A stretch of 11,466 nt of DNA from a virus. Positions within the stretch are counted from its first letter, which is position 1. Each line of letters begins with the position of its first letter. The stretch lies in the UHGV virus genome UHGV-0306748; one strand, given 5' to 3'. This document shows, piece after piece, positions 1,934 to 7,848 of this stretch. A program made the translations under genes and the position numbers. The notes beneath the pieces are model-generated. The model was not told the DNA's origin and did not search any database. It saw only the letters and a program-made list of their open reading frames with translations.

Positions 1934-2293
1934 ATGAGAATGACCAGCCGCAAAAAAGAGATACTCAGCTACTTTGAACCTGATAGCCTCGATTGGGTTA
2001 CTGGTGAGATTGGTGCGCCGCCGTTCGATGTGTCGGGTGTGGCCTACCTGCTTCATGGCATGGTGTCGTTCGATAAGCGTCACCAGCTCGAATCAACCCG
2101 GCGCACACTGGAAAGCATGGTTGCTGGTGGGCTGCTTGAGCGGGTGACAGTGTATGAATCGCGCCAGATACGGCGCGGCGGTGAGACTAACGCAACGGTC
2201 GTGCGCTACGGTTTACCCGGTCAGTGCGCTGTTATGCGCGATACTGGCGGCGCTGATAACGCAATATCAGGTGAATACATGCGGGTCAGTTAA
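1934..2293 (+). CDS. Hypothetical protein, 119 aa, possibly winged-helix-like
   Basis: Only sizeable plus-strand ORF that does not lie inside another gene. AAGGAA sits 10 nt upstream of the ATG. The segment LESMVAGGLLERVTVYE resembles a wHTH recognition helix and wing. Its 3' end overlaps the convergent 2286..2828 gene by 8 nt. No family recognised. Confidence 0.45.
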   Translation: MRMTSRKKEILSYFEPDSLDWVTGEIGAPPFDVSGVAYLLHGMVSFDKRHQLESTRRTLESMVAGGLLERVTVYESRQIRRGGETNATVVRYGLPGQCAVMRDTGGADNAISGEYMRVS

Positions 2294-2828
2294 TAGCCTG
2301 CAATCTGTCGTTGATGCGGCTCAGGTCGTAAACCCGGCGTTCAATATCCAGCATCAGGAAATTGTGGATCTCGGCCTGCTCAGGATTATCAGACTCTCTG
2401 GCCTGTAATAGCAATTCATTGTAACCATGCAAGCCGCCTGAGTTTTCCGCCGGGGTGGTGCCTTTCCCACGCAGGCAGCTAATAGGCTGATTGCTCGTAT
2501 CGTGTGTTTGCTTCTCCAGCACAATGACGCAATCCCACCAGTTGCCAAAGTCATACGTGTAAACCAGCTTGTCACCATCATTCTGGAGCGCTGCCCATAG
2601 TGGTGTGATTGCCGCATTACCCATGCTTTCATCCTCACCCCATACGCGATACTCGCTACCGGGATCACCTTTACGCCCTTTCTCGAACATATACAGGTGT
2701 TCGTCATTCCAGCCAAAAGCCAACTGGATCACCGCGTGAAGTTCACTAAAGGGGATTTGCTCTGGAACCAGCACACGCCGCCATATAGGTGGTTTGCTGT
2801 CTCGGATGGTTATCTTTAGCTGGTACAT
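2286..2828 (-). CDS. pRiA4b ORF-3-like family protein, 180 aa
   Basis: N-terminus MYQLKITIRDSKPPIWRRVLVP...LHAVIQLAFGWNDEHLYMF matches the signature I recall for this family (YQLK-[IV]-x-L...PP-[IV]-WRR...GW..HL..F). ATG start at 2828. Confidence 0.7.
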   Translation of the reverse strand: MYQLKITIRDSKPPIWRRVLVPEQIPFSELHAVIQLAFGWNDEHLYMFEKGRKGDPGSEYRVWGEDESMGNAAITPLWAALQNDGDKLVYTYDFGNWWDCVIVLEKQTHDTSNQPISCLRGKGTTPAENSGGLHGYNELLLQARESDNPEQAEIHNFLMLDIERRVYDLSRINDRLQAIN

Positions 2829-3267: not shown

Positions 3268-3549
3268 CTACCTTTGCCTCTTGCCGCCATTTAACCGGAA
3301 GGCGTTACCGTTCGGTTGCGCTATCCCCATGCGGTGTTGCGTTTCGGTAACAGCTTTATGCAGGTCGCCAAAGCCCTCAACCTTTACAGGCGGGCGCTTC
3401 ACGTTCTCCAGACACGTTTCACGGCGGCGCTTTATCCATTCCCGATCATCGTCCTCGGTGCATAACAGCATGACTTCCATCCATCGCGCTGCGGCGCGTC
3501 GGTACAGCCCTTTTGCTTCCAGATCCTCGGCTTTACTGTCGTTTACCAT
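3268..3549 (-). CDS. PerC-family transcriptional activator-like protein, 93 aa
   Basis: The segment AEDLEAKGLYRRAAARWMEVMLLCTEDDDREWIKRRRETCL matches the PerC-family pattern as I recall it. Strong SD (GGGGGAG, 6-nt spacer) before the ATG at 3549. Confidence 0.65.
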   Translation of the reverse strand: MVNDSKAEDLEAKGLYRRAAARWMEVMLLCTEDDDREWIKRRRETCLENVKRPPVKVEGFGDLHKAVTETQHRMGIAQPNGNAFRLNGGKRQR

Positions 3550-3762
3550 GTTTATCTCCCCCAGAATGGCGTTTCATCGTCGAATGGTGGGCGTTGGTCA
3601 AAATCATCAGGGGTATTATATAACTCCCATCCCGGCGCGGATTGTGTTGCGTGGCCTCCTGTGTGCCTGTAGCCTGGCTGATTCCGGTAATACTGCGGAG
3701 TTAGGTCTACCGGCATAGCTTACCCGTGGAGAAATGAATCATCGAATGAGTTTGGTCGGGAG

Positions 3763-4434
3763 TTATTCCACCAGCAAAAATGGCGTTGCCCGGTCTATGA
3801 CGTTGATGCCAATTAACGAGCTAACATTTCGACCATTCACAATGCTATCCCGTTCAAGCAAATGCGCTATTTTTTCTACTTCATACCAGTATTGAGCCAT
3901 GAGGGCTTTGGTCTTTTCAACGAGTTTAGAAAGTATTAACTCCCTGTTAATTCGCTTATCTGTAGCGCAGATTAAATCGAGCATGTCATTTACGTTAGCC
4001 ATGTCATAGCGATGAGGTAGCGAATACTTTTTGTTGAAAATATCGTTGTTTTCGTAAAGGGCTTCGCTTACTGGTCCGGCGAGGGATACAAAAGCAGCCT
4101 TTTTTGCATCGCGCTTTATACCATCCGCATAGTAACGTATGAAAGGGATAACTTTACCATTCTGCCCAACTACACCAGATTTACTATCCCGCAAACGCCC
4201 GAGATCGTGGCTGTGAATTATGCTGTGTTTAACAACGCCCAAACACTTGGCCTCATGTACATGTTCGCCAGCAACGTAACCGTATTCATCCATAACGGCG
4301 ATAACCTGTATATCTAAGCGAATAAGCCATGCAGCTACTGCATGTCCCGCTTCGTGGAATGCTACACATCGTTTACCATCACCTATCCAGTTATAGAACA
4401 TTTCATGCTCATATATCTGGTGAATGGCGCCCAT
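3763..4434 (-). CDS. Standalone FtsH-like (peptidase M41) zinc-metallopeptidase domain protein, 223 aa; no AAA+ or transmembrane region
   Basis: HEAGH zinc-binding motif at nt 4342..4356 (confirmed on the DNA) in the FtsH-like context AFHEAGHAVAAWL. A downstream MANVNDM segment resembles the FtsH GASNDI region that holds the third zinc ligand. C-terminal helices resemble the FtsH M41 C-terminus. Its ATG overlaps the upstream gene's stop (TAATG). Confidence 0.7.
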   Translation of the reverse strand: MGAIHQIYEHEMFYNWIGDGKRCVAFHEAGHAVAAWLIRLDIQVIAVMDEYGYVAGEHVHEAKCLGVVKHSIIHSHDLGRLRDSKSGVVGQNGKVIPFIRYYADGIKRDAKKAAFVSLAGPVSEALYENNDIFNKKYSLPHRYDMANVNDMLDLICATDKRINRELILSKLVEKTKALMAQYWYEVEKIAHLLERDSIVNGRNVSSLIGINVIDRATPFLLVE

Positions 4435-4607
4435 TACGCGCCCTCGCTTGCCAGTGAGGCCAGCGCCTTATCCATTAATCCCCGAGCAATTTCGTGGATC
4501 GTTGGCGCAACTCCTACCTCTGATTTTTTACGCTGCTCCTCCTGAATTTTCTTTATCGCTTCCATTTGCTTCTCACTTATCAATACCGGCTTTACTGAAA
4601 TAGCCAT
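4434..4607 (-). CDS. Small ribbon-helix-helix-like DNA-binding protein, 57 aa from ATG at 4607
   Basis: MAISVKPVLISEKQMEAIKKIQEEQRKKSEVGVAPTIHEIARGLMDKALASLASEGA has a strand-helix-turn-helix layout typical of RHH (CopG/Arc-like) proteins. AAGGGG SD 4-5 nt before the ATG. The track's TTG start at 4634 is probably an over-extension. Translationally coupled to the peptidase gene. Confidence 0.5.
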   Translation of the reverse strand: MAISVKPVLISEKQMEAIKKIQEEQRKKSEVGVAPTIHEIARGLMDKALASLASEGA

Positions 4608-4639
4608 AACGCCCCTTAGAACTGTATAAAACAACAGTT

Positions 4640-4700
4640 ATTATAGTTTCACAAATAGCAATATTTATCACCGTAATTGCAAAATATGAAACAAATAGCA
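4640..4700 (-). promoter_or_regulatory. Candidate promoter/operator region for the RHH-peptidase pair
   Basis: Minus-strand TATAAT at 4645..4640, about 33 nt upstream of the ATG. Two 10-bp direct repeats ACAAATAGCA (4651-4660 and 4691-4700) lie 40 bp apart. No convincing -35 hexamer at 17-bp spacing. Confidence 0.3.
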
Positions 4701-4701
4701 C

Positions 4702-4734
4702 AAAAAAATGCCGCCGCTCAGTAGCTGGTGGCAT
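4702..4734 (-). terminator. Candidate rho-independent terminator for the alpha operon
   Basis: 8-bp stem (4708-4715 / 4727-4734; 7 of 8 pairs) with an 11-nt loop, followed on the minus strand by six T (complement of 4702-4707). It lies between the iteron cluster and the RHH promoter. Confidence 0.4.
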
Positions 4735-4809
4735 CGTTCTGTGTGTCAAGTTTTGACAAGTTTCGTTTTAAGCTCACCCCCCCATAGAATCTTTTTGGGG
4801 GTGTAATAT

Positions 4810-5057
4810 CCCTACCAATCCCTACTAACTGGCTCATGCCACGAATGGCAAGGCTTTCAGACTGGTAGGCATTCAATTTTGTTGCCCTACATAACCCTAC
4901 TTATCCCTACTAAATCACTTCAACGGCATTTTACTGCCTGTTTTATTTGGTAGGGATATGTAGGGATAAGTAGGGATAAAAATATATATCCCTACCTAGT
5001 TTAAAGCCTTGCTACGTCTGGCCTCGTCTCGTTTTTAGTAGGGCAGTAGGGATAAGT
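4810..5057. repeat. Iteron cluster; putative replication origin for the alpha-like primase-helicase
   Basis: About 11 copies of a GTAGGG(ATA) / (TAT)CCCTAC core in both orientations. Three CCCTAC copies begin at 4885, 4895 and 4905 and three TAGGGATA copies at 4951, 4961 and 4971 (10-bp phasing). Others are at 4812, 4822, 4992, 5040 and 5049. An AT-rich stretch AAAAATATATAT sits at 4978-4989. Confidence 0.6.
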
Positions 5058-5072
5058 GCCGCCGTAAAAGTT

Positions 5073-7514
5073 TCAATCATCACTCTGCCCGCTCTCCACA
5101 CCGTAAGCGCGTGGCATGAACTCCTCAGCCTTCTCGTTATAGCCAACGTTGGTTTGCGCTCTGCCGTTAATGCTTCTCGTCAGGTAGCTGGCTCGGTACT
5201 CTTTTGCTGCTGATTTTATGGCGCGTGAAAACTTATTGACGGAAAGCGGTTTACCCAAACCGTGATACTCCATAAACGCCAGATAAAGATGATAAAGATA
5301 CGTCCTCGGCTCTGGCTGGCCTGCCCATGTACCTCCGCCCATCATCATGCCTTTGGGTTCGTTCATGAAAAAAAGCGCCGCACACATATCGACAACCGGA
5401 TCCGTGCCGCGTTTAACCTCTAGCGCCTCCTGCGAATCGCGCTGCTCTAGTAATAGTGCCTTTGCTTTGTTCTGGTCGGCAAAGGTGGTTAGCAGGTGGC
5501 GGATAATCACCGGGATTTCTCGCCTGATTTTTGCGGTTAAATCCGGGTCTTTGTCTGCGTCTGATACCGGGTTATTAAACGGGAATATCACGCGGCGGCG
5601 GGCAATGCCCCCGTTTCGCTCCGTGAATGTCATCGGCTCGTTATTGGTTGCCATAACAACGGCATTTATCACGGTTGTGAACTGCTTTTCATATTTCCCA
5701 TCAATCTCTACCGGATCGCCGCCCGTAATGGCTTTAATCCCCGCACCCTCTCCAACATAGCGGGTCTGGTCAGGCATAATAATCAGGCTTTTTCCTACGA
5801 ACTGCGCCCGTCCCCGTGCGGTGTCCAGCGTCATCATGCTACCGCTGGCGGTGTTGTGTTCACCTGCCAGCGTGGTTGCTATGCTGCTGAATACGGATTT
5901 CCCACTGCCGCCCTCGCCAGTTATCTCAATGAATAGCTGCCAGTCGTGACGCTTCGCCAGCACCATAAACAAGGCTGCTTTGATACGCTCGGCCTTATGA
6001 TGGTCGCCAGCCGTTGCATGATTCAGCCAACGGGTAAAATTGGGGGCGCTGGTGGTAATATTTTCCCCCGGCGCTGGCGGGGTGTAGGTGATCCCATTGT
6101 GGTTCATCAGCCAGTTACCCGGCGAATGGGCGGAAAACGTCTGCGTAGCGAGGTCATAAACGCCGTTATCAAAACCAATCAAATCCCCGCTCCGCTCACC
6201 AATTACCGGTATTTGCAGCTTCATGGTTGCGACAACCGATTTAATCCCCTTTTCGGTGTAGTGGGCTTCGTGCTCGTCGAAAATTGCCACCATAACCCTT
6301 TCTAATTCGCTGTCTGGTAGCTTCACCCATACGCCAGATTCGTAGCAGTAAACAGTGCCACTATCAGGGTTAACCGCCAACATATCCCATCGAGATGAAA
6401 GCAACCGCGCTTTCTGGCTGGCTGCCATTTGTGCAATATCTCCGACATCGGCTTTACGGCGGGATTTACCGCCCTCAATGGCTTGCAATCGCGGTTTCAC
6501 GGCTTCCCCTTGAATCTGGTACATCGAATCGTTAAACGCAGCCGTAGCGACTTCCAGCCCGTTTTGCTGGCGGTAGTCGTCCCAGTCGGCTTTGTAGTCT
6601 GTCGGCGGCAGCGCCACCCAGCCAGCCACGGATAAGGCGGCTTTCTCTGCGGCATCTTTGCCCGTGTTCGCCTGGTCGTCCTGCTGGTGGTCGTTATCTG
6701 CGGCAATGATAATCTGCGTGGCTGGATATATCCGGCGCATCACTTCGGCAACGGGTAGCAGGTTGCCCGCGTCAATTGCTGCCACTGCCAGCGCGTCCGG
6801 GCGCATCAGGTGAACTGAAAGGGCCGTCGCCAGCCCCTCGGCAATTAAAACGCTCTGCGGCGATTCTGGCGCGTTTACGGCGTGATATGCCCCGCGCTTT
6901 GCTGAACCTGTCAGGAGTCGTTTATCTCCCTGCGGCGTGATGGTCTGCGCCGCCACTACTGCGCCGGATTCATCCACCAGCTCCAGCAATAACGAACCAT
7001 CCGGCATAACCGGATAGTTAAACCCGGTCAGCCCTTTTGATTGCAGGTAATCAGATTCGCCCTGTGTGGCACTCTGGCGCATTCCGGCATACAGATGGGC
7101 AAACGTAGCCCTTCGCTGCTCTGCGTCCTCTGCTGCCTGTTTCTGGCGCTCCTGCTCACGCTGCTGGCGGTCAGCTTCCAGTTGCTCTCTTCTATGGCTC
7201 GCTGCCGCCGGGTCGGTTTGCGCTGCCCGGTAATCAATACCCAGCACGTCAGCGGCAAGCTGTGCCGCCTCCGTGGTGTCGCAGTTGTTAACCCGCTTGA
7301 TTAAATCCAGCCCGTCACCAGCGCCACACTGGTTGCAGATAAAGCTACCGCGCCCGTTGTCGTCGAATCTGAAACGGTCTTTTCCACCACATGCAGGGCA
7401 TGGAGAATGGCGGCGCGATGAATCAGGCACGTCGATAGACAATCCAGCCAGCACATAAGGCCAGCGCCCTGCTGCGGCGCTGGTCACTTCGCGGATAAGG
7501 TCGATATTACGCAT
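5073..7514 (-). CDS. P4 alpha-like primase-helicase, about 813 aa from ATG at 7514
   Basis: N-terminal zinc-binding motif CPACGGKDRFRFDD...CNQCGAGDG, a Toprim-like acidic segment IIIAADNDHQQDD, and a C-terminal Walker A GEGGSGKS (nt about 5895-5918). AGGAGG SD 5 nt before the ATG at 7514, which overlaps the upstream stop. The track's 7547 start is likely over-extended. Confidence 0.85.
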   Translation of the reverse strand: MRNIDLIREVTSAAAGRWPYVLAGLSIDVPDSSRRHSPCPACGGKDRFRFDDNGRGSFICNQCGAGDGLDLIKRVNNCDTTEAAQLAADVLGIDYRAAQTDPAAASHRREQLEADRQQREQERQKQAAEDAEQRRATFAHLYAGMRQSATQGESDYLQSKGLTGFNYPVMPDGSLLLELVDESGAVVAAQTITPQGDKRLLTGSAKRGAYHAVNAPESPQSVLIAEGLATALSVHLMRPDALAVAAIDAGNLLPVAEVMRRIYPATQIIIAADNDHQQDDQANTGKDAAEKAALSVAGWVALPPTDYKADWDDYRQQNGLEVATAAFNDSMYQIQGEAVKPRLQAIEGGKSRRKADVGDIAQMAASQKARLLSSRWDMLAVNPDSGTVYCYESGVWVKLPDSELERVMVAIFDEHEAHYTEKGIKSVVATMKLQIPVIGERSGDLIGFDNGVYDLATQTFSAHSPGNWLMNHNGITYTPPAPGENITTSAPNFTRWLNHATAGDHHKAERIKAALFMVLAKRHDWQLFIEITGEGGSGKSVFSSIATTLAGEHNTASGSMMTLDTARGRAQFVGKSLIIMPDQTRYVGEGAGIKAITGGDPVEIDGKYEKQFTTVINAVVMATNNEPMTFTERNGGIARRRVIFPFNNPVSDADKDPDLTAKIRREIPVIIRHLLTTFADQNKAKALLLEQRDSQEALEVKRGTDPVVDMCAALFFMNEPKGMMMGGGTWAGQPEPRTYLYHLYLAFMEYHGLGKPLSVNKFSRAIKSAAKEYRASYLTRSINGRAQTNVGYNEKAEEFMPRAYGVESGQSDD

Positions 7515-7848
7515 GGTTGCCTCCTGCCACGGTCGCGCCCATATCATTAATCATGCTTTGCCATATCTCGCGCCCGACGTCAGTCAATCCGTCCTTAGTG
7601 ACGCAACGATCAAGAAGCTCGATCCCCACGGTTTCCCACTGCGGGTAGAACACTTTCATGGCTGCCAGTGTGTAGCTATCGATCAGGCTGCGAACGCCTT
7701 TTACTCCATTGACGATTTCCACACGGACGGCGAGGCCGTCCGCATCAACCATGAAATAGTCCCCGCCGCTGGTGGAGGTAATGTGGTTATACAGTGCCGA
7801 CGCATACTTATTCGCCAGCGCATTCAGTCGGAAATTTTTAGTAATCAT
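7507..7848 (-). CDS. Hypothetical protein, 113 aa, alpha-operon member
   Basis: ATG at 7848 preceded by a GAGGGGG SD; tightly packed with flanking genes. No family recognised. Confidence 0.55.
   Translation of the reverse strand: MITKNFRLNALANKYASALYNHITSTSGGDYFMVDADGLAVRVEIVNGVKGVRSLIDSYTLAAMKVFYPQWETVGIELLDRCVTKDGLTDVGREIWQSMINDMGATVAGGNHA

Follow-up and report, generated by a model that had tools for sequence, protein, structure and literature searches.

The stretch of DNA analysed here (the window, 11,466 nucleotides (nt) of the virus genome UHGV-0306748) covers most of an integrative element and encodes, behind a small leader gene, a 223-amino-acid (aa) protein that is a genuine, soluble and probably active peptidase consisting of the M41 (FtsH-type) protease domain only. 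Its gene shows cassette-like mobility and is sporadically present in a variable satellite slot; the leader gene belongs to the backbone of the element family and the two genes do not form an obligate unit. Both open reading frames (ORFs), their stop/start overlap and the active-site motif lie where an initial annotation of the sequence had placed them, and the positions on which the following argument depends are:

3763..4434, minus strand: 223-aa ORF, the standalone M41 (FtsH-type) zinc metallopeptidase domain
4434..4607, minus strand: 57-aa leader ORF, start ATG at 4607
4431..4445, minus strand: junction of the two ORFs, with a GAGGG Shine-Dalgarno (4445-4441) and the TAATG stop/start overlap (4437-4433)
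4342..4356, minus strand: HEAGH zinc-binding/catalytic motif (H27 E28 A29 G30 H31), read from the sequence
4063..4065, minus strand: codon of E124, in L-A-G-P-x-[AS]-E, by profile alignment the equivalent of the FtsH GGRxAEE segment
4003..4005, minus strand: codon of D144, the predicted third zinc ligand, which aligns with the D of GAENDL

The M41 assignment made in the initial annotation falls short for the single sequence and stands for the family. On its own, the 223-aa protein matches PF01434 with 21.4 bits, below the cut-off of 29.9 and over 20 residues only (21-40), and the FtsH equivalog model TIGR01241 with 15 bits; direct scans against Pfam, NCBIfam, PHROGs and PADLOC return nothing beyond this sub-threshold M41 match. 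By itself this shortfall would speak for refutation on the terms set by the initial annotation (no significant M41 profile hit); deeper searches speak against it. A phmmer search of the PDB sequences matches residues 20-209 to the protease domain of AFG3L2 over its entire length (E 0.003). A profile built from 16 close homologues and run against 1.84 billion representatives retrieved 189 proteins at E <= 0.001, the best 150 of which are almost all 150-280 aa long. PF01434 is matched by 54 of 58 aligned relatives (best E 4e-16), and the profile of these 58 sequences gives full-length matches to the protease domains of FtsH, YME1 and AFG3L2 (E 5e-20 to 1e-15). The predicted structure of the 223-aa protein has the M41 protease-domain fold, and when it is compared with predicted structures of viral proteins, the best match is an uncultured-phage protein of 214 aa named "Peptidase M41 domain-containing protein". 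The homology itself is not new, because some RefSeq copies are already named "peptidase M41 family protein".

The residues expected of an active enzyme are conserved. Residues 25-36, AFHEAGHAVAAW, correspond to the x-A-x-H-E-A-G-H-A helix of M41, in which H27, A29, G30 and H31 are invariant across the 58-sequence alignment, as is G66, while E28 is kept in 56 relatives. Further along, the three residues of the L118-A-G120 segment are kept in 43, 52 and 57 relatives, respectively, E124 in 46 (and without exception in the close family), D144 in 54 and W183 in 53. The profile alignment places E124 on the Glu of AEE, and D144 on the Asp of G-A-E-N-D-L in the FtsH of Aquifex aeolicus (2di4). From the published FtsH crystal structures we take the Asp of G-A-x-N-D to be the third zinc ligand, and D144 is predicted to be its equivalent. 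The initial annotation had looked for this ligand in an A-x-N-D segment (A146-D150), which is close but wrong: that segment aligns with a later A-T-D-L-A turn of FtsH, and it is D144 that occupies the ligand column.

The domain stands by itself. As the initial annotation had it, there is neither an AAA+ ATPase nor a membrane anchor: Pfam detects no AAA domain in the 223-aa protein, its matches being short ones around the motif, and no membrane segment is apparent (highest 19-residue hydropathy 1.41). Nor is the gene a piece of a longer ftsH. The close homologues are all 219-243 aa and none is longer, and a word-indexed search with a diverse profile found 1082 clusters at E <= 1e-5, nearly all of them 160-250 aa and unnamed. 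The peptidase gene is under purifying selection (ratio of nonsynonymous to synonymous substitution rates, dN/dS, 0.19-0.27 between homologues 65-97% identical). Fold and active site make the protein a member of the M41 superfamily, a mobile-element-borne HExxH protease on the M41 scaffold, and the lack of ATPase and anchor sets it apart from FtsH proper.

The initial annotation had also proposed a dedicated pair of DNA-binding protein and protease, and it is here that the comparative data depart from it. Of 5426 complete Escherichia coli genomes, 50 (~1%) carry the peptidase gene, with three kinds of upstream neighbour:

26 genomes: the window's exact leader ORF lies 5' of the peptidase gene
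21 genomes, including enteropathogenic E. coli (EPEC) E2348/69 and O55:H7: a leader homologue ~65% identical lies 5' of the peptidase gene
3 genomes: an SSB gene, and no leader ORF, lies 5' of the peptidase gene

In the 21-genome group the gene closes an int-183aa-62aa-small ORF-peptidase module, which belongs to another element and lies at the end that bears the integrase. The leader gene, for its part, is present in ~520 of the 5426 genomes, and in ~470 of them leader and upstream region (4459-4763) occur without the peptidase; among these peptidase-less carriers, the best match to the region is at least 99% identical in 232 records. Conversely, the peptidase occurs without the leader gene at five loci (L006, L009-11 and L032), the last four of which carry homologues 43-49% identical behind other upstream genes, with no leader ORF.

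Nucleotide alignment locates the junction inside the leader ORF itself. From the promoter down to …GATAAGGCGCTGGC, at about 4459, the window and a peptidase-less element are identical; past this point the window switches to CTCACTGGCAAGCGAGGGCGCGTAATGG, common to every other peptidase locus; the window's leader ORF is thus a recombinant of a resident gene and a cassette tail:

4607 to ~4459, minus strand: resident backbone part of the chimeric leader ORF
~4458-4434, minus strand: cassette-borne tail of the leader ORF
3748..4459: approximate extent of the mobile peptidase cassette, from the limits of the BLAST matches, the peptidase-less elements and the switch point

The tail is 25-35 nt long, supplies the last eight leader codons and carries the ribosome-binding site of the peptidase gene. 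Three other loci (L005, L006 and L007) have this 35-nt sequence 5' of their peptidase gene. In the SSB-type locus L006 they follow the first eight codons of perC, creating an 18-codon mini-ORF that again ends in TAATG, so that translational coupling comes with the cassette, whichever partner precedes it. Three different backbones harbour the cassette, at two positions: after the primase gene (the window and L001), after an SSB gene (L006) and in an integrase-proximal block (L005/E2348/69). With leader-only genomes, peptidase-only loci and a junction within the leader ORF, the proposed pair fails as a dedicated unit, and the leader is a backbone gene of this element family.

The slot has other occupants. 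In ~26 E. coli genomes it holds a second standalone M41-like gene (218-254 aa, 22-28% identical, with HEAGHAIAAW), which lies directly after the satellite SSB gene in three of four loci (L015-L017 and L044). Downstream of this second gene lies one for a 116-aa protein whose N-terminus has a signal-like segment. One of these loci, L044 (CACSKA010000004.1), is labelled Chryseobacterium sp. and holds a typical enterobacterial P4-type primase-SSB-M41 element, which may reflect contamination or mis-binning, or a real transfer. On IMG/VR contigs, members of the close family lie downstream of a P4-type primase and head the head/tail gene blocks of prophage-like elements. By tblastn, neither the peptidase, the L016-type peptidase nor the leader has a match in 50,697 GenBank phage records, and the peptidase has none in 72,556 PLSDB plasmids. 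In all seven sampled peptidase-less elements (L002-L004, L040-L043) the leader heads P22-type ejection-protein genes instead. These homologues are DUF2824/gp14-like, gp7-like, gp20 'DNA ejection' and gp16-like 'injection' proteins, and satellites that carry their own ejection proteins seem worth a separate study.

The 57-aa protein had been described as ribbon-helix-helix (RHH)-like, an identity that we could not confirm beyond its topology. None of 20 leader-family members matches a Pfam family, even at E 10; NCBIfam and PHROGs scans give no match, PADLOC only a chance-level Cas11a (E 0.017), and a leader-family profile finds nothing relevant in the PDB. Aligned with hhalign to Arc, the family places strand on strand and helix on helix, with a probability of 1.3%. 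The AlphaFold monomer (predicted local distance difference test, pLDDT, 74) has an extended N-terminus (1-11) and two helices (12-28 and 37-55) joined by an 8-residue loop, with only ~7 residues beyond the second helix. This modelled topology, together with an invariant family pattern (V-K-P-V-L…G-V-A-P-T…A-R-G-L…K-A-L), is compatible with a small dimeric DNA binder. The ORF is under purifying selection (pN/pS 0.08-0.50, synonymous sites being near-saturated). Most likely, the protein is a small DNA-binding or regulatory leader of the operon and not a dedicated partner of the peptidase.

Translation signals are clear for both genes. An AAGGGG Shine-Dalgarno precedes the leader ATG at 4607 (the program-made ORF list had lengthened this ORF to a TTG at 4634, where there is no Shine-Dalgarno), and the GAGGG Shine-Dalgarno of the peptidase ORF lies within the last leader codons, one base of TAATG being common to the stop of one ORF and the start of the other. 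Transcription signals were sought in the region upstream of the leader:

4608..4763, minus strand: leader upstream region, 91-100% identical in ~520 E. coli genomes
4645-4640, minus strand: perfect TATAAT
4700-4691 and 4660-4651, minus strand: exact 10-nt direct repeat TGCTATTTGT
4758-4744, minus strand: perfect 6+3+6 palindrome TGTCAAAACTTGACA, ~110 nt upstream of the TATAAT

The initial annotation had given the pair its own promoter with flanking repeats. The TATAAT and the repeat are indeed present, but no acceptable -35 accompanies the former, a promoter and terminator scan of 3400-5150 calls no promoter 5' of the leader ORF, and the size of the repeat is about that expected by chance. A perfect -10 with no -35 suggests, from the sequence, dependence on an activator. 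The same scan finds no terminator after the peptidase gene. The palindrome is kept in sister elements and is a candidate site for a dimeric regulator.

Looking beyond the close family, a profile scan of genome contigs with the close alignment recovered mostly true ftsH genes and six distant loci, and we inspected the gene context of eleven distant lineages. In five (L020, L021, L025-27, L028-29, L035-36) the M41 gene is co-oriented with a tyrosine integrase gene at a distance of 0-64 nt, a coupling seen across several phyla; in one, on a Rhizobium plasmid, it directly follows a MarR-family gene; two others have phage-like contexts and three no obvious mobile context. One of the integrase-coupled cases is an acidobacterial prophage (L025-L027, 2787-6855) in which the integrase gene is followed, after a 21-nt gap, by the M41 gene and by convergent PARIS-like AriA/AriB genes (PADLOC models). 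This layout parallels the integrase-peptidase-hotspot arrangement reported for Bacillus prophages. EPEC E2348/69 and its relatives carry RosmerTA (RmrT and RmrA, the latter a helix-turn-helix (HTH)-M78 peptidase) in their yicC-dinD element, convergent to the M41 module and immediately beside it (L005, 5055-6922; L018, 7014-8881, from E2348/69).

What is the peptidase for? The reading that we favour, tentatively, is that of an accessory protease in conflicts between phage, satellite and host, because its gene is cargo of sporadic occurrence, borne by a cassette and placed in a satellite hotspot, beside known defence genes; defence genes are known to accumulate in such hotspots (PMC9122126). The absence of matches from isolated phages and plasmids fits this reading. 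A cassette made of the peptidase gene and ~35 nt of upstream sequence has recombined into the slot downstream of the iteron origin of a P4-primase-type, AlpA- and integrase-bearing integrative phage satellite, where the gene has become a second cistron, translationally coupled behind the resident 57-aa leader gene. Lacking an unfoldase, the enzyme probably acts independently of ATP, cutting one particular protein at a specific site within an exposed or unstructured segment. This target could belong to a helper or competing phage, or to the host, in which case it would be cleaved after phage sensing, a working mode resembling that of the single-gene Lit protease of e14 or of satellite interference factors. 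A toxin role, or that of an obligate anti-repressor of the leader protein, is less likely.

Several points weigh against this conflict role. The structure model of the peptidase is of low confidence (mean pLDDT 61). PADLOC-DB 2.0 has no match for the peptidase or for the L016-type peptidase, and in the literature searched, hotspot papers included, neither the gene, its accessions nor a standalone M41 defence or regulatory system is described; here the initial annotation, which knew of no such system, was right. Adjacency to defence systems is found in two lineages only. The integrase coupling in five of the eleven distant lineages looks more like a backbone or regulatory arrangement, as for ImmA, than like cargo. 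Finally, 47 of the 50 E. coli peptidase genes follow a leader homologue, which makes a functional link possible.

This last point also counts in favour of the main rival, an ImmR/ImmA-like switch, in which the peptidase cleaves the leader or another repressor of the element and thereby derepresses the operon or induces the element. The layout fits, a small putative DNA-binding gene being followed by a zinc peptidase gene with a stop/start overlap, as in immR-immA; a MarR-family gene lies directly 5' of one distant homologue, and the integrase-coupled lineages place the peptidase at the usual site of ImmA-type peptidases, beside the integrase gene (PMC9122126). We nevertheless consider such a switch unlikely: the ~470 genomes with leader and promoter region alone and the leaderless peptidase loci speak against an obligate circuit, the linkage is accounted for by the recombination junction inside the leader ORF, DNA binding by the leader is unproven, and the peptidase belongs outside the ImmA/IrrE family, with no Pfam or NCBIfam match to it (M78, PF06114/COG2856). 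The integrase coupling, with its short gaps in several phyla, could point instead to an accessory of integration and excision, which would degrade a recombination-directionality factor or some other labile regulator that the element encodes. A precedent would be host FtsH, which degrades lambda CII, CIII and Xis; however, the window's gene is remote from the integrase end and only sporadically present in sister elements, and we judge this explanation improbable.

More improbable still is a type II toxin-antitoxin or addiction module, another suggestion of the initial annotation, in which a protease toxin would be neutralised by the leader protein. A mobile element with an overlapping gene pair, of which the small gene comes first, is what one would look for, and the toxin-antitoxin-type defence system RosmerTA neighbours the module in a related element. 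Yet the peptidase exists without the leader, which a toxin should not tolerate, and the leader is mostly paired with unrelated downstream genes. Canonical RHH antitoxins carry a neutralising domain longer than the ~7 residues that follow the second helix of the leader, which are too few for one. That the gene is a decayed ftsH-like fragment, or its HExxH a chance occurrence, is scarcely credible: a Pfam match of 20 residues below the gathering score might suggest it, but full-domain alignment to M41, the FtsH fold, conserved length and catalytic residues, a dN/dS of ~0.2 and more than 1000 standalone relatives rule it out. A dominant-negative mimic of FtsH is improbable, the catalytic residues being conserved and the identity to FtsH, ~15-20%, making a conserved hexamer interface unlikely; a prohead protease was rejected, the fold being wrong and the window showing no link to capsid genes.

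How, then, does the peptidase compare with known systems? With the C-terminal protease domain of FtsH, AFG3L2 and YME1 it appears to share the fold, the xAxHEAGHAxxxW helix, the L-A-G-x-x-A-E segment, the Asp as third ligand and a C-terminal helical bundle, while it lacks the AAA+ ATPase, transmembrane anchor and periplasmic domain and is a mobile-element gene where ftsH is an essential housekeeping gene. ImmA/IrrE (M78, COG2856) with ImmR, CapH/CapP and the RmrA of RosmerTA likewise set an HExxH peptidase behind a small regulator gene on a mobile element, and the M41 relatives, too, adjoin integrase genes and defence hotspots; unlike these, the protein is M41 and not M78, and its upstream leader is neither an XRE HTH protein nor obligately linked. 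The Lit protease of e14 (Peptidase_U49) is a single-gene abortive-infection zinc protease that cleaves EF-Tu. As a standalone HExxH metallopeptidase on a defective prophage or satellite-like element it could serve as a model for defence by a lone protease, though the likeness is one of analogy only, with no sequence or Pfam relationship. The slot itself resembles the hotspots of P4-like satellites (Rousset et al., 2022, PMC9122126) in being variable cargo of an E. coli element with integrase, AlpA and P4-type primase, whose sisters carry known defence systems; it differs in lying downstream of origin and primase and not between psu and int, with no psu, sid or delta annotated. That paper makes no mention of an M41 peptidase.

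FtsH-type proteases are regarded as ATP-driven membrane machines, and a widespread soluble version with no motor would be a different use of the FtsH catalytic domain. Its carriers are satellites, prophages and other integrative elements, where it is often integrase-coupled or beside PARIS or RosmerTA. We also entertain, as a more doubtful proposition than the conflict role, that domain-only M41 peptidases, which recur as two divergent cassettes in one slot of E. coli phage satellites, form a large unstudied class on mobile elements, acting as a new ATP-independent switch or weapon; this could take the form of a single-gene anti-phage or helper-interference protease, or of an M41-based analogue of ImmA that controls induction or integration. 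Should a phage or host protein prove to be cleaved, satellite cargo would hold a new single-gene mechanism of defence or interference; should it be a regulator of the element, the ImmA-type anti-repressor problem would have been solved a second time, by unrelated means. While the comparative data weaken the idea of a two-gene system, they leave an uncharacterised, widespread protease family with suggestive contexts, and the 0.7-kb cassette, carried by ~1% of E. coli genomes and by the EPEC reference strain E2348/69, is experimentally tractable.

The remaining genes of the window describe the element that carries the cassette:

5073-7547, minus strand: P4-family primase gene
4806..5057: iteron field GTAGGGATA / TATCCCTAC between the primase gene and the leader, with 9-10-bp iterons, 10-bp phasing and two inverted clusters
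3552..3716, minus strand: remnant of the 3' end of an SSB gene, a 54-aa ORF ending in the SSB C-terminal tail …DDFDQRPPFDDETPF
3268-3549, minus strand: gene for a PerC-family transcriptional activator (E 9e-29), belonging to the backbone at the distal end
2286-2828, minus strand: PRiA4_ORF3-family protein (E 2e-41), a backbone gene of the distal end

The iteron field is very likely the replication origin of the element, judging by its repeat structure. The remnant at 3552-3716 matches an annotated SSB gene by BLAST, and intact SSB genes occur in four loci (L006, L015-17); we read it as a backbone scar that marks where the peptidase cassette recombined. All element genes are on the minus strand, and the pair is followed in order by the SSB scar, PerC, a 61-aa ORF and PRiA4_ORF3. 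PerC homologues regulate virulence loci in EPEC and in enterohaemorrhagic E. coli (EHEC). AlpA-type HTH, AntA/AntB, DUF4222 and Icd-like genes are also present. The block next to primase and origin is AT-rich, as had been noted (fraction of G and C 0.40-0.46 over 3600-5000, whereas the neighbouring primase gene has 0.51-0.61), which supports a variable AT-rich cargo slot beside the origin of a P4-primase-type integrative element. A copy in strain PSS-12, 99.7% identical, ends in a tyrosine integrase beside tRNA-Thr, and other copies sit between yicC and dinD. The full element carries an integrase, an AlpA-type HTH protein and a P4-family primase; psu, sid and delta are not annotated in it, no dedicated profile search having been run for them, and because of this we class it, on annotation, as a P4-primase-type or phage-inducible chromosomal island (PICI)-like satellite rather than P4 proper. 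At the left end of the window, two dinD genes stand in tandem on the minus strand (2-631 and 975-1799, 89% protein identity), one of them running off the end; PDC-S13, a candidate-defence model of PADLOC, matches the DinD copy that is complete (E 3e-126), and in other strains the site holds only one dinD.

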